A stretch of 64,000 nt of DNA from Naegleria gruberi (Eukaryota). A program made the position numbers and the translations under genes. The notes beneath the pieces were generated by a model. That model was given only the letters and a program-made list of their open reading frames with translations. It was not told where the DNA came from and did no database searches. Location of the stretch: NCBI GenBank assembly GCA_000004985.1, contig GG738883.1, one strand, 5' to 3'. Positions 2,525 to 63,865 of this stretch are shown here, piece by piece (the first letter of the stretch is position 1; each line of letters begins with the position of its first letter).

Positions 2525-3766
2525 ATGAAACAAGCAATCATGACTCTCAAGTTTACAAGTTTCCTTATTGCCTCAATAAGCATGTTGTTTATATATCTCT
2601 CTGTATGTCAAGTTGTTGATGCAGCAACGTGTACCAATAGTCAAGGATGTGGCGTAAGGGCATTCCTTGCAGATCTTCAACAAGAGGTTTCTCAATTAGA
2701 TTGTATCAGCAGCAAGTTGAATAATAGCATTGCAATTTTGATGTCTACAAATTCCTCAGCATTAAATTCTCAGATCAAGACCAGAGTCAAGCAATTGAAC
2801 AAGATTGAGGCTGCTAAAAAGATGTTGTCCTTAGAAATAGCTCCATTGAATGATCAATGCAACAAACAAGACGGAGACAATTGTGACTTGGCATGTTTTG
2901 GACTCGCTCCTTCCAAATATCCTTCAACAGTTTGTTCTGGTCATGGAGTATGTTCTTCTCTTGATGTCTGTTCATGTTATCCAGGATGGTCAGGTAGTAA
3001 TTGTTCTCTCGCTTCATGTAATGGAATTTTAGCAACCAATACAAGCTCTGTTTGTAATGGTCGTGGCACATGTGTTTCCAACAATACTTGTGTTTGTAAT
3101 AGTGGAGTGTATGGTCCTTACTGTGAACCAATCATTATTACTGGAGATGATACAACAGGCAGAAGAATGGCCAATGGTGTGGCCAAGGCAAGTTGTTTGG
3201 AATTTTATCAAGCTTATCCATATGCAGAATCTGGTTTTTACTACATCAAGCCACAAACTACTGAAGTATTAGTGTATTGTAATATGACTATGAGTGGTGG
3301 AGGTTTCACATTTGTTCGTCGTGTTGCAGCTGCAGGTTGGTGGCCTTTGAATGATAATTTTGGTGGAAGCGGTTCTGGAATTTATAATCCAAGATCATTA
3401 TCAGCTGCTGGTGTTACATTTGGTCTCGATTATTCCAACATTCCTAGAACTCAAGTATTAATTACAACAGGTGATGGTGTGCATTGGATTCTAGTTAATT
3501 TGGATCAACTCACTTCTGGATATGGTGGGAATGATTGTACAGCCACAATTACTCTATTAGCAAGTTCTATCAGTCCAAATACTCCTTATTCTGTACAAGT
3601 TTGCAAGAGAGGAAACTTTAATGAAGACCCATGGTTGACAACTCATAATCATTTTTACATGACAACAGATAGTGAAAGTCACAGTATGTTGTGGGGTGAA
3701 TCAAGTAATACCTATTGGCCATATTGGAAGACTAGTCATGGTGGTATCAATGTGTTTATTAGATAA
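2525..3766 (+). CDS. Secreted protein with signal peptide, coiled-coil, EGF-like Cys repeats and a fibrinogen-related (FReD-like) C-terminal domain
   Basis: There is an N-terminal hydrophobic signal (LIASISMLFIYLSVC). The EGF-like modules are CSGHGVCSSLDVCSCYPGWSGSNC and CNGRGTCVSNNTCVCNSGVYGPYCE. These are followed by SCLEFYQAYPYAESGFYYIKPQTTEVLVYCNMTMSGGGFTFVRR. That stretch matches the FReD subdomain-A signature (SC..........SG.Y.I.P....VYCDM..GGGWTV.QRR). Confidence 0.7.
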   Translation: MKQAIMTLKFTSFLIASISMLFIYLSVCQVVDAATCTNSQGCGVRAFLADLQQEVSQLDCISSKLNNSIAILMSTNSSALNSQIKTRVKQLNKIEAAKKMLSLEIAPLNDQCNKQDGDNCDLACFGLAPSKYPSTVCSGHGVCSSLDVCSCYPGWSGSNCSLASCNGILATNTSSVCNGRGTCVSNNTCVCNSGVYGPYCEPIIITGDDTTGRRMANGVAKASCLEFYQAYPYAESGFYYIKPQTTEVLVYCNMTMSGGGFTFVRRVAAAGWWPLNDNFGGSGSGIYNPRSLSAAGVTFGLDYSNIPRTQVLITTGDGVHWILVNLDQLTSGYGGNDCTATITLLASSISPNTPYSVQVCKRGNFNEDPWLTTHNHFYMTTDSESHSMLWGESSNTYWPYWKTSHGGINVFIR

Positions 3767-4271
3767 GTTGGTTCAATAAACTTGAAAATTACAATTGTTT
3801 TTAACTAGAACATATAATATGAATAATGACTTGTTGACATGTTCCCAAATACTTAAATCTTTAATTTTGAAGAATTTTTTTGTCTTTGGATTATTATTCT
3901 GAAACTTCACTCAAGAATTATTGGGACAGAGACTTTAAAAAACATTTTGAAGATCAATCCATGTCTAACAATACAATAAGAGCAAAGAAACGAGCTTTGG
4001 TTGAGGCATTTTCATCGTCCTCAAATTCAGAACCTGAAGAAACACCAAACAATACTCAAAATGTGAATTCATCTGTAATTATTACTACAGATGAACTGAA
4101 CAATCTTAGTCCCAAAAAACCCTCCCAAACTCCCATGAAATCCTCAGCCATTCTTCAGAATAAGATGTAGGTCAATGATACAAAAGTTAAATGAAACATG
4201 TTCATAACATGATTTTGCTATTTGATTCCAATTTTTTGTTCGATTGAGATATTTTAAGAACAATAATGTAA

Positions 4272-4342
4272 CGACCTATGGTGCAGAGGGAGCATATTGG
4301 ACTCTGAATCCAAGGACGCAGGTTCGATTCCTGCTAGGTCGG
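4272..4342 (+). tRNA. tRNA-Gln (anticodon CTG)
   Basis: Cloverleaf folded by hand. Acceptor CGACCTA/TAGGTCG, D-arm GTGC..GCAT, anticodon stem TTGGA/TCCAA with loop CTCTGAA (anticodon CUG), and T-arm GCAGG-TTCGATT-CCTGC. T-run terminators follow at 4346-4358. Confidence 0.85.
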
Positions 4343-4345
4343 TCA

Positions 4346-4358
4346 TTTTTGTTTTTTA
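4346..4358 (+). terminator. Pol III terminator T-runs (TTTTTGTTTTTT) downstream of tRNA-Gln
   Basis: T5 and T7 runs lie immediately 3' of the tRNA. Confidence 0.5.
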
Positions 4359-4479
4359 ATATTTATTTCACTGGGAAATCTTACTAGTACGTCCTGATGT
4401 TTTGGTTGTCACCGGAAAAGAATGTTAATAACAAAGCGGAAAAATATTGCAAAAATATTGGCTAAACATGTACGTCCAT

Positions 4480-4920
4480 CACGACTCTGTTGATTCTTGG
4501 AGTAGTTTCACATCTATTAACTCCAAAAATTTCACCACATCATCTCATCATCATTTAAATAATAGTATTAATAGTAATTTTTGGAATTTAATTGTTCATC
4601 ATGATTTGGAAATAATTTTATTATTCGGAAAAATTCAAGTTGGTAAAATCATTATAATAGTAATATTTGTGGAAATAAATCTGGTAATAGTAATATTTTA
4701 GTGAAATTCAATCATCATCACTGCCAGATTTATATGATAATTTGGAAAACTTTCAATCTAGTATTGTTCAGCATGGTCGATTCCATCAGGTAAAATTACT
4801 TCCGAATATTTTCCTATTGGTTATCAGTTGGCGCCACCGTTGGCGATGTACATGTTTATTTTCATCTAAATAATAGTATTTGTGGAATTTTTAATTATTG
4901 GATTATTACTGTTAATATTA
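4480..4920. repeat. AT-rich degenerate short-repeat tract (recurring aataatagtatt / tggaattt / ataatagtaata units)
   Basis: Repeated short motifs are visible. The low-complexity ORF 4447-4701 is most likely an artefact of the repeats. The tract lies between tRNA-Gln and the transposase-like ORFs. Confidence 0.35.
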
Positions 4921-4944
4921 TGCAAAAAGCTGATATTTTGATTT

Positions 4945-5780
4945 ATGAATGAACCATCAAACAAAAGGAAAGAGTATGGATCTAAATCAGTATACTGCAA
5001 GCAAAATAAGATTGCCCTTGATCAATTAGGAAGACTATTGAAACAATTTGATAATGGTAGTTTGACTGGAAAAGAAACATTAGCAAGAGGTAGAAAATCT
5101 CTAAAATTAACAAGTGATGAAATTGTTTCTGTAATTACTGATATTAGATCCCAAAGAGATGCTAAAAAGCAAATTTCAGATACTGCAATCCATGAAGCTA
5201 TCACAAAAATTACAAATAAGACAGTGAGTTTATCTTATTGTCACAGTTTTGGAGTTAAATATTTTGATCAAGAATCAGTGAAAACTAAAATGGTAAAAGC
5301 TGTAAAATTGGTGATCACTATATGAAAGAGTATATAGATGGTATTATTTCTATACTCTTTTCGCTAAATTGGTGTTTGAAGTATTAGAATTTAATCCTAC
5401 CAATAATGCAATATTTCTTTGATGAAACAGGCACTGATACAAACAAACAAGGCCTTAAAACATATGTAGATAGCCAAGTTGATAATGGATATGTTCCTTC
5501 ATGTAATCATATCAAAGAAAAAGATACATTCTTGGTAGGAGTGAATACTGTTGGTGAATTCTTGCCAATAAGTGTTGTTCTTTCTCAAGAAAAAAAAAAG
5601 AAGACGATTGCAGGTGAGAAAACTACTATTCAAGAGAAAGTACGTGGAGTTCACTTATCACATATTGAAACATGGGTCAAAGATGTGTTATTGCAAAAAT
5701 GTAAACGTGGTGATTTATTAATTTGGGATAATCTAGCAGCTCACAAATTTCAAAATCCAGAAATTGCTATCAGATGCTGA
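4945..5780 (+). mobile_element. Possible degraded Tc1/mariner-type DDE transposon remnant (two consecutive ORFs)
   Basis: ORF 5406-5780 ends with ...RGDLLIWDNLAAHKFQNPEIAI. This resembles the third-Asp motif of the DDE/DDD transposase catalytic domain (..DNA..H..). ORF 4945-5325 is basic and HTH-like. The location next to a tRNA and a repeat tract fits the call. No TIRs were identified. Confidence 0.3.
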
Positions 5781-16226: not shown

Positions 16227-17849
16227 TTAACCACCACTCTCAATATTATTTCTTGTCAAGAACACGTTATCATATTCGAAAGATAGTCTTTCTTTGAGAG
16301 CTTCTTCATAGGGAATAGCTGGGTGACCAATCTCACAAAATAGCCCTGCATGTCGTGCTAATTCAATTGCTATATCTTTGCTTTTTGAAATATAATTTAC
16401 AAACTCTGCTGCCATACCAGAACGCTGTTTTAGTGTGAACAAAAGCATTGACTCATCCGTAATGTACAAATGTCTAATATCGTTATTGTTTCGTATTAGA
16501 CTAGGATTTGCTACTAGTGCCCTTTTTATATAGTCTCTATCAGATAGTTGACTGTTTGTGAGTTTGTGTTGACTACCGAATGTTTTTGAATGTTTGAGAC
16601 ATTCAAGAAGGAATTCTTCATCCTCCAACATTGAGGGAAGTATATCAATGGTAATATCTTCTGATAAAGTCTTGATTATTAGATTCTTATTTGTCTTTAA
16701 ATGATGTGAAAGAAAGTGATAGACTTTCGGGTTCACTTTGAGTGCTTTTTCAGCAAACTCGATATCGTTCAGCAGATGATTTGGTAAATGTTTGATATAC
16801 TCTGATTTGACAATAGTTTCCAATATTAAATCTTCGGTCATTGAAGAAATTAATTGTTCTTGTAATAACTTGATTTCCCAACAAACATTAATTACATGTT
16901 CAATAGCTAGGGGATTTTGAGATAATGCTTGTTTTACAATATTCTTATCAGACCTCAATCGTATAGATGCATATTGAAGAGCCAAACCATTCTGCTTTAC
17001 AGCCAATAGCACAATTTCACTTTGATCTCTCATTACTTCATTCGCAAACTCCAGTGCAAGCCCATTTTGCTTCACTGCAATTTTAACAATAGAGTAAGGT
17101 ACATCTCTAGAGCAAAAATTCAGAGCCAATCCATTTTGTGTAACAGCAATTTGAACAATGTCTAAATCATTCTGAAATTTTGAAAATACTTTCAAATTGA
17201 GTCCATTCCAACTGATGAATAATCTGGCCAGTTTCTTATCCACCAGTTTCGATTCATCTAAATAATTAATATCTCCCTTTGCAGCAGCAGTAATAACATC
17301 CTCATCATATTCCAACTCATTTCCAATAAAGTAAATATTGAATGGATTGACTTTTAAAACTCTCAATATAAATTCCTTATTTTCCAAATACTTTGAGGGA
17401 AGATTATGCAAAGTAAATCCAGTTTTTTCCATTGCAACCTCAATCACATCTTCATCATAGGCAATACTCGGATCTCCATAGTGAATCATTGCTCCAGACA
17501 TTGAGAGGGCCCTCTTTAATATTTCCTTATCTAACAACCATGAAGGAAAGGAACCTCTCGCATGATCAATATAAAGTTGTCCATTTTGATTCACTGCCTC
17601 CAATACAACATTTCTACAGGCCATAAACTCGACAGGAATCAGACGAATTTCCCTCCACGAAATTATACTCTTTAATTTCCATGTTTTTAGTTCAATATTG
17701 AGAAAATCATCTCTTCTTCGGAACCATTTGCACAGATTTTCCTGTTGACTATTAAATTTTCTTCGTAATAATTTGCTGTAAATTCCCTCCGATAATTGGA
17801 AATCTATTAATTCAAAAATCACCAGAGCAGATGTTGGATCTAAATGCAT
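16227..17849 (-). CDS. DUF4116-type repeat protein
   Basis: There are about ten tandem ~36-aa repeats of the form ..D.E(I/V)VL.AV.QNGLAL.(F/Y)AS..L(R/K).D. Examples are DQSEIVLLAVKQNGLALQYASIRLRSDKNIVKQALSQN and VPYSIVKIAVKQNGLALEFANEVMRD. A paralog lies at 58631-60523. Confidence 0.6.
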   Translation of the reverse strand: MHLDPTSALVIFELIDFQLSEGIYSKLLRRKFNSQQENLCKWFRRRDDFLNIELKTWKLKSIISWREIRLIPVEFMACRNVVLEAVNQNGQLYIDHARGSFPSWLLDKEILKRALSMSGAMIHYGDPSIAYDEDVIEVAMEKTGFTLHNLPSKYLENKEFILRVLKVNPFNIYFIGNELEYDEDVITAAAKGDINYLDESKLVDKKLARLFISWNGLNLKVFSKFQNDLDIVQIAVTQNGLALNFCSRDVPYSIVKIAVKQNGLALEFANEVMRDQSEIVLLAVKQNGLALQYASIRLRSDKNIVKQALSQNPLAIEHVINVCWEIKLLQEQLISSMTEDLILETIVKSEYIKHLPNHLLNDIEFAEKALKVNPKVYHFLSHHLKTNKNLIIKTLSEDITIDILPSMLEDEEFLLECLKHSKTFGSQHKLTNSQLSDRDYIKRALVANPSLIRNNNDIRHLYITDESMLLFTLKQRSGMAAEFVNYISKSKDIAIELARHAGLFCEIGHPAIPYEEALKERLSFEYDNVFLTRNNIESGG

Positions 17850-37283: not shown

Positions 37284-37298
37284 TTTTTGGCGCCAAAA
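37284..37298. promoter_or_regulatory. Palindromic E2F-like element TTTTTGGCGCCAAAA
   Basis: A GC palindrome in AT-rich promoter DNA, about 150 bp upstream of the minus-strand gene that starts at 37139. It matches the E2F consensus TTTSSCGC in both orientations. Confidence 0.4.
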
Positions 37299-40881: not shown

Positions 40882-40968
40882 TCCGATGAGACGGAATCGA
40901 ACCGCCGACCACAGGATTACAGTGTTTCTTGCTACAGTCCCATGCTCTACCAGCTGAGCTATCATCGG
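40882..40968 (-). tRNA. tRNA-Tyr (anticodon GTA) with a 14-nt intron
   Basis: The reverse complement folds as CCGATGA..GCTCAGCTGGTAGAGC..TGGGA-CTGTAG[CAAGAAACACTGTA]A-TCCTG..GGCGG-TTCGATT-CCGTC..TCATCGGA. The intron sits 3' of position 37, as is canonical for tRNA-Tyr. Confidence 0.85.
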
Positions 40969-41107
40969 TACATGTTTTTAAATAAAGGATGAAATATTTT
41001 ATTGTAACTCTAAAATAAATTATTGGAGAACACAATGTCCTTCAAATGGATTGTAGATGATGATTGCTTAGCTTTGTTGTAAATAAGGCGATGATTGTAT
41101 TAAGTGA

Positions 41108-41180
41108 GCCCGTCTAGCTCAGTCGGTAGAGCGCAAGGCTCTTAACCTTGTGGTCGTGGGTTCGACCCCCACGGTGGGCG
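41108..41180 (+). tRNA. tRNA-Lys (anticodon CTT)
   Basis: GCCCGTC-TA-GCTC-AGTCGGTA-GAGC-G-CAAGG-CTCTTAA-CCTTG-TGGTC-GTGGG-TTCGACC-CCCAC-GGTGGGC-G. This is a canonical cloverleaf. Confidence 0.9.
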
Positions 41181-41370
41181 ATTTCTCTTTTATGTTAATA
41201 AGCATTTTTTAATTTTCTCTGACTTATCAAATTGTCTTAACTTTACCAAATATTCCAATAAATTCAATTTACTGAGCTTTATGTTCTTATAAGCATCTAC
41301 TATTTTGATTATTTCAACAATAATTAAATATTAAATTAAATTATATTAATTAAAAAATATTTGAATTTAA

Positions 41371-41676
41371 AAAACATTAGTCTGACTCCCAGATTTCACT
41401 CTCTGTTAGCTCATGCTCAGTTCTGCAATCTGACCATCATACAGTGTGAAGGCTATGATTTGCTCAGTTATCCTGCCTCAACCGGTTCACCTTTCATTAG
41501 GACCCTAGTTTCTCCTTTTTCATGGGGAGGTACTATGGTCACACCGCTATTGGCGCAGACAGAACATCGTCACCATATTGCTAACAGAGGAATGAGTCTG
41601 AAGAACCATCCCTTTGCCTGACGCTGTGGCAGAGAACCATCACAGCTACCTCCCTACAGTAGCCCAGCTTGTCTTT
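41371..41676 (-). ncRNA. 7SL: Signal recognition particle RNA (7SL/SRP RNA)
   Basis: The minus strand reads ...GCUGGGCUACUGUAGGGAGGUAGCUGUGAUGGUUCUCUGCCACAG... with Alu-domain helices 3 and 4. It continues ...CAAUAUGGUGAC..., a 12-nt identity to human 7SL. Then comes ...GGUGAACCGGUUGAGGCAGGAUAACUGAGCA..., which in human is GGUGAACCGGCCCAGGUCGGAAACGGAGCAGG in S-domain helix 8. A T6 terminator follows; on the + strand it is the A-run at 41369-41374. The ends are good to about ±10 nt. ORFs 41361-41621(+) and 41581-41835(-) overlap it and are spurious. Confidence 0.75.
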
Positions 41677-47206: not shown

Positions 47207-47227
47207 AATTGGCGCCAACTTTAAAAC
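47207..47227. promoter_or_regulatory. Palindromic E2F-like element AAATTGGCGCCAACTTTAAAA in a bidirectional promoter
   Basis: The core TTGGCGCCAA is at 47209-47218. It lies about 50 bp upstream of the minus-strand gene starting at 47162 and about 170 bp upstream of the plus-strand gene starting at 47389. Confidence 0.4.
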
Positions 47228-47388: not shown

Positions 47389-48411
47389 ATGAAATTTGTC
47401 AAGATGAAAAAAATACAACAAACAAAGAGGAAGAGAGAAGATATTGTTCTCGATTTATCCAATGTTTCTCCCAATGGTAAATGGTGGACCGCTCCGAACA
47501 TTGTTCATCTCGTATTAAAATATTTACCAGTTAAAGATATGATCCAGGGCAAGACATTGTGTAAGAATTGGTTCAAGGTGATGAATCATCAATTTGTGAG
47601 AGAGTATGTGGCTAGTTTCTTGGAGTTGGATGAAGACAACTTGCAAGATCTTGAAGTCATGATGAATACCTTCAAAACAGAGAAGAAAATGGTTTCCTCT
47701 TATGAGGCTATCATTGAACAATTGAAAGAATTAGATAATAGTAATGATTATTCTGAGAGTGTAAGATCACTATTGAGTAAATATGAAAAATCTCACAGTT
47801 TAGACCTTTTGAAAGAAATCTCAAAATTGACAAAGAAAGAAATCAGAAATCAGAACTCGTTGTCGTTGGAACCACCAAAAATTGTTATTGCTGAAAATGA
47901 GTACAATTGTCAAAACTATGGCAGCATTCGGTCTATTCTATTGTCACAAGATTTGAATTCTATTGAGCAATATGGTCTCAATGTCACAACTATTGAAAAG
48001 AGTTACTTTATTGTGTTAAGTAATGGTTATCCTATGAAGCTTAATTTTGATTATAAATGTGGAAGATATGATGGTCATTACAAAGTTGAAGTTAATGGAA
48101 CTAAAGCTATCAGGTTGAAATGGTTTGAGGGTGGATTTGAGGAGAATCATAACTGGGAATTTATCAAATTACTGAAAAAGGGGTTGGATTTCAAGTCAGA
48201 TACACCAATTGAAGAGGATACGGTATTTCTAACAATACTTTTTGCTTGGTTAATACAGCTTTTCCCAGAGGCAACAAATTATGAAATACCAGACTCATGT
48301 TTTGGAGAATCAATTCTTGTCTATTCAGATTTGGGTGAGGATAATAGGCTGTTTGCTGATGATAATTCAGAAAATGAGGAAGGCAGTAACAAGTACGATT
48401 CAGATGAGTAA
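47389..48411 (+). CDS. F-box-like protein (340 aa)
   Basis: N-terminal F-box-like helix bundle (LVLKYLPVKDMIQGKTLCKNWFKVMNHQFVREYV) and an acidic C-terminus. Confidence 0.45.
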   Translation: MKFVKMKKIQQTKRKREDIVLDLSNVSPNGKWWTAPNIVHLVLKYLPVKDMIQGKTLCKNWFKVMNHQFVREYVASFLELDEDNLQDLEVMMNTFKTEKKMVSSYEAIIEQLKELDNSNDYSESVRSLLSKYEKSHSLDLLKEISKLTKKEIRNQNSLSLEPPKIVIAENEYNCQNYGSIRSILLSQDLNSIEQYGLNVTTIEKSYFIVLSNGYPMKLNFDYKCGRYDGHYKVEVNGTKAIRLKWFEGGFEENHNWEFIKLLKKGLDFKSDTPIEEDTVFLTILFAWLIQLFPEATNYEIPDSCFGESILVYSDLGEDNRLFADDNSENEEGSNKYDSDE

Positions 48412-58630: not shown

Positions 58631-60523
58631 TCAATTATTACACAATTCCAAAATCTGGCTATCAATTCTCAATTGAACTGATGCATATTTCAATGCATTC
58701 TTATTTTGTTTAACTGCAAATGAAACTATTTCTCTATCATTTCTATGTTTCGAACACATTTGACCCAAAAGATTTCCATTTCTTTTCACGACTCTAATAG
58801 CAAATAATCTATCTGTCACTTTTAAATAACTAGAAGCATTGCGGAATGCTGTGTCAACATTGGTTTTTAAAGCTTCCATCAAAATCTCTCTATCTCTTTG
58901 ATAATAACTTGGAAAATATTGTAAACACTCCCCACTTTTCTTGGCAAATTGCATGCAACTTTGTTTGTCTTTCAATCCTCCTAATACTTTCCGAAAATTA
59001 CTAAAAATAGGGATATTCAGTTGACATGTTTCAGCAGCTTTAAGAATTATATCCTCATCATCTAAAAGTTCTTTAGAGACCTTTTTAATTGCATGCCCGT
59101 TTTGGGAAACTGCAGCTAAAACTATTTCTCTATCTTTTCTAAATTGGTCATTCACAAAAGAAAGTATCATTCCACATCTTGTTGCAGCTTGTAATATAAA
59201 TTCTCTGTCATTTTTCAATTCATTTGGAATAAAATCAAAATTGATTGGATCAAGTTTAAGTGATTCCAATAATATTTCTCTGTCATATCTAAATTCATCT
59301 GGAAGATATCTCAATAAATAGCCTCTCTTTCCCAATGATTGAAGAAATTCAGTGTCATTTCTCAATCTTTCAGAAATATACTGAATGCTTAAACCACATG
59401 ATTTGAGTGCCAATTCTGCAATTTCCCTGTCATCTCTTAATTGTGCTGATAAAAACCTCAAACATAAACCATTTTTCATAACAGCTGATTTCACAATTTC
59501 TCTATCTTTTTGCAATTCCTTGGATGCAAAGATAAACCCGGATGGATCTTGTTGAATGGATTTAATTACAATCTCTCTGTCGTTTCTCAATTCCTCAGAA
59601 GCATAGTACAGTGCTACATTACCATCTAACTTTGCTAATGTGCGAATAAATTCTCTATCGTTGCTAAATAACTGATCAACTTGACTAAGGCAGGTAAGAG
59701 ATTTTGAAAATGCTTTAAAAATCACGTCTCTATCCTTCTTCAATCCAAGAGATATGCATGCATAAGATTTTGGGTGTGATTCTAAAGCAAGCAAGACAAT
59801 TTCCTTATTATTCTTCAATTCTTTTGACGCAAACTGAAGTGCAATACCATCTTGTTGTACAGCAATTCTAACAATTTCAATATCATTTCTCAATTCTTTA
59901 GATGCAAATTCAAGAGCTCTTCCACAACTAGTAACAGCTGCCATGACAATTTCCTTATCATTCTTCAATTCTTCTGACTCGACATACACAAGGTTAAATC
60001 CATTTACTTTGACAGATGCCATGACAATTTCTCTGTCATTCCCAAACTCTTCATCTACATATTCTAATGTTCCAAGATCAACATATTCAGTCGTTTGCAA
60101 AACAAATGATCTATTCTTCCACAATCCAAATTTTCTGGCCAAAATGTCAAAATTTTGAGAACACAAATTGAATATTTGATTGTGAATGAAAGTTTGATCT
60201 CTTATCCAATCAATTTTCAATTTAATTCTTTGACTTTCATCACTTTCGTCATTCTCTTCATCATCATATTCACTTTGGAAATCCCAAACATGAGCACTTT
60301 CATCATAACTTGTTCCGAAAGAATATTCGAATATTGGTTTCATAATTGTTTCAAATTTTTCCTTGTGTGGAATGTCTGCAATTTTGGTGGAAAGTAATTT
60401 TGATGAAAATGTTAAATCTAAAAAACAATAATGTTCATCATTATTTTCCAATAAATTGGGTTTTTGGCTTGTGAGTTTTTTTGATGGAGGAGTATGATTA
60501 GTTTCGACAGCTTTTCGTTTCAT
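58631..60523 (-). CDS. DUF4116-type repeat protein (paralog of 16227-17849)
   Basis: There are twelve or more ~36-aa repeats, for example DREIVMASVKVNGFNLVYVESEELKNDKEIVMAAVTSCGRALEFASKELRNDIEIVRIAVQQDGIALQFASKELKNNKEIVLLAL. Confidence 0.6.
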   Translation of the reverse strand: MKRKAVETNHTPPSKKLTSQKPNLLENNDEHYCFLDLTFSSKLLSTKIADIPHKEKFETIMKPIFEYSFGTSYDESAHVWDFQSEYDDEENDESDESQRIKLKIDWIRDQTFIHNQIFNLCSQNFDILARKFGLWKNRSFVLQTTEYVDLGTLEYVDEEFGNDREIVMASVKVNGFNLVYVESEELKNDKEIVMAAVTSCGRALEFASKELRNDIEIVRIAVQQDGIALQFASKELKNNKEIVLLALESHPKSYACISLGLKKDRDVIFKAFSKSLTCLSQVDQLFSNDREFIRTLAKLDGNVALYYASEELRNDREIVIKSIQQDPSGFIFASKELQKDREIVKSAVMKNGLCLRFLSAQLRDDREIAELALKSCGLSIQYISERLRNDTEFLQSLGKRGYLLRYLPDEFRYDREILLESLKLDPINFDFIPNELKNDREFILQAATRCGMILSFVNDQFRKDREIVLAAVSQNGHAIKKVSKELLDDEDIILKAAETCQLNIPIFSNFRKVLGGLKDKQSCMQFAKKSGECLQYFPSYYQRDREILMEALKTNVDTAFRNASSYLKVTDRLFAIRVVKRNGNLLGQMCSKHRNDREIVSFAVKQNKNALKYASVQLRIDSQILELCNN

Positions 60524-60921: not shown

Positions 60922-61995
60922 ATGTCTGCATTGAGTCCACTCATTATCCCTGTCATCAGCAATATCGCAAATATTTCCCAATATCTTCAAGAAGATAATG
61001 ATTCAAAGAATTTACAGCTCAAGTTTGTTAATTATAGCAATCCGATCGAAGTTTTGAATTCTGGATTTGAAATTATTGTTGCTGATGGTTATTTGCTCAC
61101 TCCGGAATTTTGGCAAGCTTTTCATCACCAACTTGAAAAGGGAGAATCATCATTGAAGTGGATTAATTGCACATTTGCGGGTGTGAATGCAATTTTTGAA
61201 AATATTAGAAAAACCACTGATTCCTCTAAATTAATTCAACTTTTAATTGAAAATAATATTAGATTGACTAAAATTGGAGTTTTTGGATCACACATGTTTG
61301 AATATTTAATTCAACACATGATGAATGAGTTACGTCATTATGAGAAAGTTTTGGATCATCAATCTCAAAGTTTGTGGGTTGGAAAAACTGCTTTCAATTA
61401 CAAGACATTGGATAGAGTAAAGATTGGTCTATTGGGATATGGTAATATTGGAAAGTATATTTGTGAGACTTTCAAGAAAATATATCCAACCATTAAGATT
61501 CACATTTATAGAAATTCTCAAGTTGTTGAAGAATCCCAATATCAACCAGACAAGTTCTTCTATGGTAGTGAGCAATTGGGCGATTTTATTTCATCATGTG
61601 ATTATGATTTCCTTATCAGTATTTTACCATCTACTCCTGAAACTAGATACATGCTCAATACTGATGTTTTAGAAAAGTTACAAACTCGTTCACAATGCTG
61701 CTTTATTAATGTTGGAAGAGGAGATTTAATTAGTGAATCAATGGTAGTTGAGGCTCTTGATAAGAATCTCATTAGAAAGGCCATTTTAGATGTTTTTGAA
61801 GTTGAGCCTTTACCAACCACCAGCCCATTCTGGACCAGAAAGGATGTTCTCGTTACTCCACATATTTCTGCACTTTCTATTCCACATACACTTGTGGATG
61901 CCTTCTTCAATAATTTCCACAAAGTTTCAAATAATGATGGATCATTTGCTTTTGAAAAATTGGAATATCAATGTAATTGGAATAAGGGATATTAA
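60922..61995 (+). CDS. D-isomer-specific 2-hydroxyacid dehydrogenase (glyoxylate/hydroxypyruvate reductase-like)
   Basis: Rossmann fold with GLLGYGNIGK. The catalytic region reads NVGRGDLISESMVVEALDKNLIRKAILDVFEVEPLP...VLVTPHISA and carries the R, E and H triad. Confidence 0.8.
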   Translation: MSALSPLIIPVISNIANISQYLQEDNDSKNLQLKFVNYSNPIEVLNSGFEIIVADGYLLTPEFWQAFHHQLEKGESSLKWINCTFAGVNAIFENIRKTTDSSKLIQLLIENNIRLTKIGVFGSHMFEYLIQHMMNELRHYEKVLDHQSQSLWVGKTAFNYKTLDRVKIGLLGYGNIGKYICETFKKIYPTIKIHIYRNSQVVEESQYQPDKFFYGSEQLGDFISSCDYDFLISILPSTPETRYMLNTDVLEKLQTRSQCCFINVGRGDLISESMVVEALDKNLIRKAILDVFEVEPLPTTSPFWTRKDVLVTPHISALSIPHTLVDAFFNNFHKVSNNDGSFAFEKLEYQCNWNKGY

Positions 61996-61999
61996 ACAT

Positions 62000-62884
62000 T
62001 TAAACTTTCATGAAGGATGTCATTTTCAGAACATTGACCACATTTTTCTTACACTCATTGGTTCTCTCCTTATCCATTTCTCCATCAGAATTGAAAATTC
62101 CATATAGTTTATATTGTCTATCAAGTTTCTTTCCATTTCTCAGCTTGATACTTCCAAACATTCTGCATCTTGGGTATTTAACACTATTTGTATCAATGAT
62201 ATCTTCCATGCTCCATGTTGAAGGTTTTCCTGTATATGATGTGCAATTACATTGTTTCAAATGATCAATCAGTCCTTCAAGATATAATCGATACTTTTCA
62301 TTTGATTCTACCATAATTTGAGGAAAGTACAACCTGTAACCAGACTTGTATTTGCAATCTGGTGTTTGGGAATCACCAGCATAAGTACCATGGCAAAATG
62401 TTATGCAACATTCATAATCTGAATTTGGAAAATATTGTTTAGTAAACTCCAAAATTTCCTTCAACCATTGAGATTTAGTCAAGTTGACTGTTTCATTCTC
62501 CTTCAATTTGAAATCCAAATCCAAGTAGAGTTTAAAATTATGAAAAGACCTAATTTCCTCAATGAAAATATCCTGCTTCTTCTCAATAGAATTCTTCCAA
62601 GCATTGAAATATTCCTCCATAATTGTTTCATTTTCCAACTTGACATGATAATGACCACCTCTCTGTGATATATGTGTTGGATTTTGGAAAAGCAATTGTT
62701 TATCTCCAACCACTGAGTGATCATAAATCCACTGCTCCAAATAATCGGATGGTTCATAGGCAAATTCTTGAACTTTTTTGTAAAATTTGATATTGTCAGA
62801 TGGAGAGGGAGTGAACTTGGATGTGTTTCTTGTTGCTGATGATGGCGGCTTGTTGGTGGAAGATGAAGTTTGTCGTGCTTTCAT
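62000..62884 (-). CDS. PrimPol-like archaeo-eukaryotic primase (AEP) domain protein, short form
   Basis: KLYLDLDFK matches PrimPol motif I (human KLYFDLEFN). KYKSGYRLYF sits at the motif-II position (human FSRHLIF), but the His is replaced. DIIDTNSVKYPRCRMFGSIKLRNGKK matches motif III (human DLGVYTRNRNFRLYKSSKIGK). No UL52-type zinc finger is present. An E2F-like palindrome lies about 150 bp upstream. Confidence 0.45.
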   Translation of the reverse strand: MKARQTSSSTNKPPSSATRNTSKFTPSPSDNIKFYKKVQEFAYEPSDYLEQWIYDHSVVGDKQLLFQNPTHISQRGGHYHVKLENETIMEEYFNAWKNSIEKKQDIFIEEIRSFHNFKLYLDLDFKLKENETVNLTKSQWLKEILEFTKQYFPNSDYECCITFCHGTYAGDSQTPDCKYKSGYRLYFPQIMVESNEKYRLYLEGLIDHLKQCNCTSYTGKPSTWSMEDIIDTNSVKYPRCRMFGSIKLRNGKKLDRQYKLYGIFNSDGEMDKERTNECKKNVVNVLKMTSFMKV

Positions 62885-63027
62885 TTTTTTCTTTGTGTTG
62901 TTATTTTAAAGTTGAAGTCGTGAACTTCCAATTTCAACTTTATTCATTTTCAAAGTTGAAAAGTTGCCGACTAAGGATTTGTTTTCATGAAGATGCTAGA
63001 CAATAATAAAGGATTAAATTGTTAAAT

Positions 63028-63041
63028 TGTTGGCGCCAATT
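63028..63041. promoter_or_regulatory. Palindromic E2F-like element TGTTGGCGCCAATT
   Basis: The core TTGGCGCCAA is at 63030-63039. It lies about 150 bp upstream of the PrimPol-like gene that starts at 62884 on the minus strand. Confidence 0.4.
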
Positions 63042-63506
63042 TTGCAAAAAGAACTCAAAAATTTGAGAAGTAAATTAAAAAGGAAAAATATTTTGATGAT
63101 TTACTTGTTGAAATTACGAAAGAATTTATTGATGGTAGATGGGTTACCCCGTTTTTTCTGGCAATTGATATTGAGCATGATGTTACCAACTTTAAAAACA
63201 AATCAATATATTTTAGGGAACTATTCTTTGGAAATGAAGAACATTTCTTCTTAAAAACCTATATTACTTAAGGAGTTTGTTGTTTGGATTGGGTATACAT
63301 TTATATAAAGTTCGTATACCCCATTCAGAAAAAGAAAAGGCCAACATTGTTAAAATTCCAAGTAAAATTGTCAAACAAGAGAAGAATTCAGTTCAACAGA
63401 TGCTTTAAATTGTGTACATCATATTGGCTTTTCATCTTGTTTTGAATCATGCTAATCAAATTAATGCTGTTTGACAGATCAAATTGACAAGTCAAATATC
63501 AAAAAA

Positions 63507-63865
63507 ATGGTTAACTTTCAAGCTGTCCAACAAACCGTCGCGTATGTAAAATCATCATCAAATCTAACCAAATATATTTAATTTGATCATCATAAAGTGA
63601 TGGCAATCTAGGAAAATTCTTAAGTCTTGTCGATCAACTTCCAGATATCAATGCATCGGATGAGCATGGAAATACTCTTCTCCATTGGGCAGTCGCTTAT
63701 AAACGCCTCCAAGTTGCTCAAGAATTAATTGAAAAGAAGAAGATCGATACAACCAAGCAAAATATTCAGAAAAAGACAGCCTTTGACCTTTGTGTTGATG
63801 CTTGCGTTTCGGATATTTCATTCTTTGAGATGAAGACTTATTTGAAGAAGATTTTGGGTAAATAA
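63507..63865 (+). CDS. Small ankyrin-repeat protein; 2 exons
   Basis: Exon 1 is 63507-63541 (MVNFQAVQQTVA, phase 2, donor GTATGT). The intron is 63542-63597 (56 nt, ..CATAAAG). Exon 2 is 63598-63865 (DGNLGKFLSLVDQLPDINASDEHGNTLLHWAVAYKRLQVAQELIEKKKIDTTKQNIQKKTAFDLC...). Confidence 0.45.

Follow-up and report, generated by a model that had tools for sequence, protein, structure and literature searches.

A stand-alone PPL4-family member of the archaeo-eukaryotic primase superfamily in Naegleria gruberi and its upstream sequence elements

Human PrimPol (CCDC111; PDB 5l2x, 7jk1), a member of the superfamily formed by the archaeo-eukaryotic primases (AEP), carries a zinc finger of the UL52 type that is needed for de novo priming and is not needed for polymerisation. 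ASFV C962R (African swine fever virus; AsfvPrimPol, PDB 8iqb), poxvirus D5/E5 and herpesvirus UL52 have helicase domains and a DNA primase-helicase role. For divergent AEP families of eukaryotes a part in RNA-repair systems has been predicted (Burroughs & Aravind 2016, as cited in PMC5862659), and the MJ1316 domain, which recognises RNA 2',3'-cyclic ends, is repeatedly fused to RNA-repair domains (PMC6514570). The subject of the present analysis is NAEGRDRAFT_50888, a gene on the minus strand of a 64,000-nucleotide stretch of nuclear DNA of the amoeboflagellate Naegleria gruberi (contig GG738883.1, assembly GCA_000004985.1; the whole stretch is called the window), together with a palindrome that lies upstream of it. 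A first-pass annotation, made by a model from the letters of this stretch, had described the gene as a short PrimPol-like primase gene preceded by an E2F-type site; by its Pfam match the product belongs to a different family, PPL4 (Prim-pol 4).

Family membership, fold and catalytic motifs

NAEGRDRAFT_50888 (62000–62884, minus strand): The coding sequence was found in the list of open reading frames as a single exon of 294 codons, ATG start, without interruption, the stop codon being included in the coordinates given. The product was 100% identical to the N. gruberi database protein XP_002674650.1 (UniProt D2VMZ2; label “predicted protein”), the source scaffold of which has a length of 371 kb. 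In the Pfam search the protein matched PF18188 PPL4 at E = 4e-67 (225.5 bits; cutoff 25); the match extended over residues 45–209 (62258–62752, minus strand) and over the full profile (positions 1–159 of 159), and the precomputed Pfam annotation of the identical database protein was also PF18188 PPL4. The match includes the family signature PTHISQRGGHYH (residues 69–80), in which the columns P69, T70, H71, S73, Q74, R75, G77, Y79 and H80 were invariant in the alignment. The AEP catalytic core (residues 70–263; 62096–62677, minus strand) was delimited by a match to PF23162 AEP_C962R (E = 6e-25). The frame is almost certainly an intact AEP of the PPL4 family; it is an uncharacterised protein from a family that had been catalogued before and no new kind of system, and its novelty is low, because the family is known computationally and the protein already has its Pfam signature in the database searched.

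Fold: An AlphaFold2 model of the protein had a mean pLDDT (predicted local distance difference test) of 77, with values of 80–96 in the core, and was unreliable only at residues 1–39 and 67–72. Foldseek matches of the model were the Prim/Pol domain of ASFV PrimPol (C962R), UL52 of herpes simplex virus 1 (HSV-1) and human PrimPol. The AEP fold, on which the first-pass annotation had depended, was recovered in this way, and the affinity to the PrimPol side of the superfamily that it had proposed was borne out by the structural matches: as judged from the model, the protein is an AEP of the PrimPol / NCLDV (nucleocytoplasmic large DNA virus) / herpes-UL52 branch. When all PDB chains were searched with the single protein (phmmer) and with a profile of eight sequences, only chance matches were obtained (VioA, E ~0.17); among the PDB sequences, 5l2x and 7jk1 included, there was no PrimPol match at E ≤ 10, and no C962R match either. 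The link to PrimPol therefore rests on fold and Pfam profiles. Identity to the N-terminal Prim/Pol domain of ASFV C962R was only 15%, and, in contrast to C962R, D5/E5 and UL52, the present protein is without a helicase domain.

Catalytic motifs: All three AEP motif peptides that had been quoted for the 294-residue product were found in it. Motif I, KLYLDLDFK (residues 118–126; 62507–62533, minus strand), contains the metal-binding D122 and D124. Motif II, KSGYRLYF (residues 180–187; 62324–62347, minus strand), of which the string SGYRLYF as first quoted forms residues 181–187, carries R184 at the canonical His position. The motif III region, DIIDTNSVKYPRCRMFGSIK (residues 228–247; 62144–62203, minus strand), holds the catalytic D231 and the stretch RxRxFGSxK; the third peptide quoted, YPRCRMFGSIKLRNGKK, corresponds to residues 237–253, and D231 lies slightly upstream of it. 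In an alignment of eight sequences (A1), D122, D124, D231 and the stretch K180-S-G-Y-R184-L were invariant. A second alignment, anchored on a hidden Markov model (HMM), covered 28 sequences, family members and outliers together; here D122/D124 were kept across the PPL4 clade and in the UL52-bearing relatives, the exception being the degenerate relative P0045, in which NFN replaces DxD and motif II is lost too. Motif II in the HMM-anchored alignment was K-S-G-[YF]-R-h-[YF]-[FY] for the PPL4 clade vs K-[ST]-G-x-H-h-h-[FW] for the UL52-bearing relatives; the alignment (I/V)D ... R(M/L)xG(S/T)xK was common to the PPL4 protein and the PrimPol-like relatives. Of the residues by which the AEP superfamily is recognised, the metal ligands (motif I DxD/DxE and the motif III Asp) are present as D122, D124 and D231; the nucleotide-binding His of motif II (sxH) is replaced by R184, which is a clade-level variant and leaves superfamily membership standing. 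The exchange of His for Arg is common to the aligned PPL4-clade proteins, the large multidomain ones included, and is thus ancestral and no sign of decay of this copy.

Comparison with human PrimPol (human sequence from PDB 5l2x): Human motif I, KLYFDLEFN (D114/E116), aligns with KLYLDLDFK, and human K165-F-S-R-H169-L-I-F pairs position by position with K180-S-G-Y-R184-L-Y-F; the residue in the place of the motif II His is accordingly R184 and not Y183, the Tyr that had been named in the first reading. That reading had also taken both spacing and sequence to follow PrimPol closely, which was overstated: the distance between motifs I and II is similar (62 residues vs 55 in human PrimPol), but between motifs II and III it is 47 residues vs 111, and in hhalign of the family profile against human residues 108–199 the alignment was confined to motif I (12 columns, E = 0.072), with no detectable similarity beyond that motif. 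No match to Herpes_UL52 (PF03121) and no Cys/His cluster were found in the C-terminus, the last 60 residues of which hold two Cys and no His; the absence of a UL52-type zinc finger, as stated at the outset, was confirmed. Relative to human PrimPol the present protein lacks both the UL52 zinc finger and the C-terminal extension, R184 stands where the human protein has H169, the domain context of its family is different, and there is no significant match at the sequence level. A truncated or degenerate PrimPol paralog, as had been suggested, does not describe it; it is a full-length PPL4 member, and the missing zinc finger and the Arg are family-wide.

N-terminal tail: Residues 1–44 (62753–62884, minus strand) form a Ser/Thr/Pro/Lys-rich tail that is predicted to be disordered (AlphaFold2 pLDDT <50 for residues 1–39); its conservation was poor, except for FTPSPS(D/E)N in the nearest relatives. 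The M-K start of the present gene and that of the environmental protein P0002 fall at the same aligned position, where the longer called product of P0003 has an internal Met.

Range of the family and a proposed role at RNA ends

The family profile was used for a HMMER scan over 1.84 billion representative proteins. The PPL4 family was small (39 representatives at E<1e-30), and its named members came from Discoba only: N. gruberi, N. lovaniensis, Willaertia magna and Percolomonas in Heterolobosea; Entosiphon, Ploeotia, Papus, Perkinsela, Diplonema papillatum and D. japonicum in Euglenozoa. Heterolobosean members have the architecture MJ1316+PPL4 (Naegleria, Willaertia, Percolomonas) or consist of PPL4 alone. 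The euglenozoan proteins (700–1600 aa) combine for the most part MJ1316, EEP (Exo_endo_phos), 2H phosphoesterase (2_5_RNA_ligase2/LigT) and PPL4, an arrangement found in euglenids, diplonemids and the prokinetoplastid Papus; in one euglenozoan member an RWD domain is added at the N-terminus, and no 2H domain was matched in the protein of Diplonema papillatum. Herpes_UL52 was found in none of the scanned proteins of the PPL4 clade. Next come relatives at E 1e-13 to 1e-4, which had better AEP_C962R scores and kept the His of motif II, with Herpes_UL52 present in several. In a more distant Cavostelium protein the AEP is combined with an AAA_33 kinase, a DSP phosphatase and an RNA ligase of the T4 Rnl1 type. 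We take PPL4 to be one of the divergent eukaryotic AEP families of Burroughs and Aravind (NAR 2016), a view based in part on the architectures found here.

Paralogs and lineage: The PPL4 genes of N. gruberi number at least three, namely the present one, P0143 (518 aa, MJ1316+PPL4, on another scaffold) and P0145 (315 aa, PPL4 only, outside the window; its contig equals that of the present gene in length, 371,401 bp, and is thus probably the same scaffold). In a neighbour-joining tree of the AEP core the present gene grouped with the environmental sequences P0002 and P0003, to which its core identity is 70% and 53%; these three proteins, designated group C, formed a separate heterolobosean lineage, their identity to the euglenozoan forms and to groups A and B being only 35–43%, and none of them had an extra domain. 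With the PF18188 family the present protein shares the full-length match, the signature PTHISQRGGHYH, the motif I DxD, the motif II KSG[YF]R, the motif III D and the range within Discoba; in contrast to the fused forms it is the catalytic module alone, without MJ1316, EEP and 2H. Association with RNA-end domains, which is typical of PPL4 and does not define it, was seen in the relatives and not in the 294-aa protein. When the sequences of eight relatives were run against the window (tblastn), no MJ1316, EEP, 2H or second PPL4 coding sequence was found elsewhere in it, an upstream exon included; no MJ1316 exon had thus been missed, and the short architecture is real. By sequence comparison, the gene is the stand-alone catalytic module of an old divergent lineage and not the result of a recent truncation.

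Two observations were made at loci of relatives. At L006 (GCA_016850925.1), a 78-aa MJ1316 “gene” (3704–3940) precedes a same-strand PPL4 “gene” (4001–5116) by 60 bp; the pair is most likely one MJ1316-PPL4 gene that was split at an intron by the annotation. In group B, the order PPL4 – inositol polyphosphate kinase – adh_short is kept between N. lovaniensis (L008, 10001–13845) and an environmental Naegleria-like contig (L005, 110–3899), a conserved synteny that argues for vertical inheritance.

Proposed function: Taken as a whole, the reading that we favour, by a modest margin of confidence and by analogy with the relatives, is that of an intact stand-alone PPL4 AEP module which would extend 3' ends in the course of RNA-end healing. 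Since no zinc finger was present in the scanned members of the PPL4 clade, the enzyme would probably extend pre-existing 3'-OH ends, as a nucleotidyl-transferase or polymerase, and would not prime de novo. The recurrent fusion partners recognise or heal RNA 2',3'-cyclic-phosphate ends, from which the preferred substrate is probably RNA; the most likely substrates would be RNA ends left by the cleavage of a ribonuclease toxin or a stress nuclease. In the relatives, the MJ1316 domain would bind the 2',3'-cyclic-phosphate end, the 2H phosphoesterase and the EEP phosphatase/nuclease would then open it and take off the phosphate, and the AEP would finally refill or copy after the end had been healed. 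The present paralog would depend on end-healing functions that act in trans, and the MJ1316-PPL4 paralog P0143 is a candidate partner. The stand-alone module is probably catalytically active, to judge from its sequence; for an action on RNA ends rather than on DNA, which is argued by analogy, the chances are put as about even.

Several points weigh against this reading. The RNA substrate is assigned by association, from fusions that occur in paralogs and in distant orthologs; the group C proteins never carry MJ1316, EEP or 2H, and at 35–43% identity to the fused forms their lineage could have a different substrate, DNA included. Among solved structures, those closest to the protein are without exception DNA primase-polymerases. 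The Arg in place of the motif II His could have altered or abolished the activity, and no genes for RNA-repair partners were found in the window by tblastn. A wider proposal, in which the PPL4 enzymes would be RNA-acting AEP repair polymerases or RNA-dependent RNA polymerases working on healed 2',3'-cyclic-phosphate ends, the motif II Arg would be an adaptation, and the three Naegleria paralogs would be co-regulated as a stress/RNA-damage regulon by the GAA/TTC element described below, is regarded as doubtful.

Upstream elements and alternative explanations

Palindrome TTGGCGCCAA (63030–63039): The perfect palindrome, which had been placed about 150 bp upstream of the gene, was located 146 bp upstream of the ATG and ~468 bp upstream of a divergent ankyrin-repeat gene. 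Three copies were counted in the window vs 0.02 expected, which is far beyond chance (none of 100 shuffles reached that number); the half-site TTGGCGC gave 11 matches vs 0.91 expected, and all four GGCGCC hexamers of the window were embedded in TGGCGCCA. The other two copies (37287–37296 and 47209–47218; that at 37287 being the full TTTTGGCGCCAAAA) stand 56 and 46 nt upstream of minus-strand ATGs (37230 and 47162), and all three palindromes of the window are situated in 5' intergenic DNA. One copy was found in the 42 kb of N. lovaniensis that were scanned, 55 bp upstream of a gene. Given this enrichment and the promoter-proximal copies, that of N. lovaniensis included, TTGGCGCCAA is very likely a genuine recurrent promoter-proximal element of Naegleria, and it is likely, at a lower level of confidence, that it functions as a cis-element.

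The canonical palindromic E2F site is TTTSSCGC, with TTTGGCGCCAAA as its optimal form. In common with it, TTGGCGCCAA has a GGCGCC core with TT/AA flanks on both strands, and its three copies are promoter-proximal; unlike it, the copy at 63030–63039 reads TTGGCGC on both strands, so that 7 of the 8 positions of TTTSSCGC are matched per strand, and neither a link to S-phase genes in the window nor conservation upstream of the seven PPL4 homologs available was found. The products of the genes downstream of the copies at 37287 and 47209 are coiled-coil proteins for which Pfam gave no significant match; the second of them contains the KEN-box-like sequence SNKENQ, and its gene has a promoter in common with a divergent F-box-like gene (47389–48411). 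Single TTGGCGC sites were found upstream of an EGF-domain gene, upstream of a possible first-exon reading frame of a GH31 glycosidase gene and inside the signal recognition particle (SRP) RNA gene (41550). By Pfam annotation, no replication or S-phase gene was found beside the other two palindromes or among most of the large reading frames of the window. Loci of N. lovaniensis, Willaertia and metagenomes served for the comparison of promoters. The palindrome was absent upstream of seven PPL4 homologs (L001–L005, L007, L008), among which L001, the sole group C locus, offered only 93 bp of upstream sequence, the others being paralogs; it was also absent upstream of the PPL4 exon of L006, where the range searched consisted of the MJ1316 exon and the intron and not of the promoter of that gene. 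An E2F-pRb module is on record for Excavata, and the last eukaryotic common ancestor is inferred to have had one (PMC4862756). Binding of the palindrome by E2F/DP, as suggested by the site sequence, is a tentative assignment that falls short of being probable; that the palindrome would place this gene under S-phase regulation is improbable.

GAA/TTC-rich inverted repeats (62910–62962, minus strand): By pattern scan, the proximal promoter was found to contain the gene-strand sequence TTGAAATTGGAAGTTC at 62922–62937, which ends 38 bp upstream of the ATG and lies inside an AGTTGAA..TTCAACT inverted repeat (62910–62939), and a second palindrome, TTTTCAAAGTTGAAAA, at 62947–62962. In a direct pattern scan of 147 kb the exact 15-mer pattern TTGAANTTCAAGTTC had only two matches (L007, 9860–9874; L008, 9906–9920), which are situated 141 and 95 bp upstream of the two PPL4 paralogs of N. 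lovaniensis, themselves unlinked; close variants stand upstream of both Willaertia paralogs (L004, 3865–3879; L003, about 3860). The window copy TTGAAATTGGAAGTTC matches TTGAANTTCAAGTTC only with a 1-nt insertion, the match having been recognised post hoc. These sequences suggest, as a lead only, that the PPL4 paralogs may share a regulator other than E2F by way of the GAA/TTC element. When the paralog promoters were searched for motifs by k-mers, poly-A tracts dominated the result, and a scan for bacterial promoters and terminators, the model of which is irrelevant to a eukaryote, gave nothing above background.

Alternative explanations: The closest folds (ASFV C962R, human PrimPol, poxvirus D5/E5, HSV UL52) and the intact metal-binding acidic residues would suit the first-pass view, in which the gene is a short paralog of PrimPol type, a DNA primase-polymerase with a role in replication or in the tolerance of DNA damage, and an E2F site brings about its transcription in S phase; for such a gene one would also cite the fit of TTGGCGCCAA to the E2F core on both strands, its over-representation near gene starts and the E2F-pRb module in Excavata (PMC4862756). 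This explanation is nevertheless judged unlikely. Both the UL52 zinc finger and the motif II His are absent, a relationship to PrimPol is undetectable in the sequence beyond motif I, and the family is PPL4, in which the fusion partners are RNA-end processing domains. The palindrome, for its part, is missing upstream of the seven PPL4 homologs; the other genes that bear it are coiled-coil or F-box-like, with no Pfam match or a weak sub-threshold one, and none is a known S-phase gene; other TTGGCGC sites lie upstream of the EGF-domain gene, upstream of the possible GH31 exon and inside the SRP RNA gene.

The loss of the canonical motif II His, the shortness of the protein without the accessory domains of its relatives, and the existence of inactive members such as P0045, which has lost motif I (NFN for DxD), could together indicate a catalytically dead or decaying copy, either a nascent pseudogene or a scaffold without enzymatic function. 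This is very unlikely in view of the uninterrupted frame of 294 codons, the family signature conserved throughout, the invariant D122, D124 and D231, the confident AlphaFold2 model across the core and the same short architecture kept in relatives of 71% and about 50% identity; moreover, the His-to-Arg exchange is clade-wide and ancestral. Still less credence, to the point of near dismissal, is given to a recent capture from a giant virus or mobile element, by which the gene would be the remnant of an NCLDV-type primase. Outside PPL4 its best relatives, by Pfam as well as by structure, are indeed viral primases (ASFV C962R, poxvirus D5/E5, herpes UL52), and the next-nearest relatives are metagenomic proteins, most of them on contigs <30 kb, which may be viral; however, the GC content is flat across the region (0.28–0.37), the neighbours are ordinary cellular genes, and the spread over Heterolobosea and Euglenozoa is compatible with vertical descent, as is the conserved synteny of group B. 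A recent viral origin was rejected after a family-pattern scan of the IMG/VR viral contigs, in which 151 stretches matched and 0 were confirmed by tblastn, no relative being found there.

The surrounding window and significance

Convergent neighbour (60922–61995, plus strand): The gene was identified as a D-2-hydroxyacid dehydrogenase (PF02826, E = 8e-35), in agreement with the first-pass annotation. The stop codons of the dehydrogenase and AEP genes are 4 nt apart (61996–61999; TAA-ACAT-TTA, 61993–62002), and not 5 bp as had been stated. With the convergent coding ends at this distance, the 3' untranslated regions of the two genes must overlap on opposite strands.

Other features of the window: Kinases, DUF4116 (domain of unknown function) repeat proteins, LMBR1, SAM synthetase, a Ras/Roc-ankyrin protein, a GH31 glycosidase, Dcp2 and a leucine-rich-repeat protein make up the rest. 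The DUF4116 proteins are encoded at 58631–60523 (minus strand; 13 repeats, E = 2e-146) and 16227–17849 (minus strand). A cluster of Pol III type (40882–41667) comprises the SRP RNA (41370–41667, minus strand; Rfam, 94 bits), tRNA-Lys(CTT) (41108–41180) and an 87-nt tRNA match (40882–40968, minus strand) that was given by Rfam and not by ARAGORN and may contain an intron. Between the palindrome TTGGCGCCAA and the ankyrin-repeat gene starting near 63507 there is a coding-like open frame of 65 codons without Met (IKKEKYFDDLLVEITKEFIDGRWVTPFFLAIDIEHD...; 63074–63271, plus strand), for which no Pfam match was obtained (best E = 0.05); the frame may be an exon that was not annotated or the relic of a gene.

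Significance: Few candidate cis-regulatory motifs can be made out in the promoters of Naegleria, and the palindrome TTGGCGCCAA is one of them. As for the protein, the replacement seen at R184 bears on whether Arg can take the place of the otherwise near-universal motif II His of AEPs, and the proposed role at RNA ends bears on a computational prediction of 2016. If that role is true, the PPL4 clade would be a lineage of the primase-polymerase fold used by eukaryotes on RNA ends, and Naegleria would hold its simplest form, a catalytic module of 294 aa without accessory domains.

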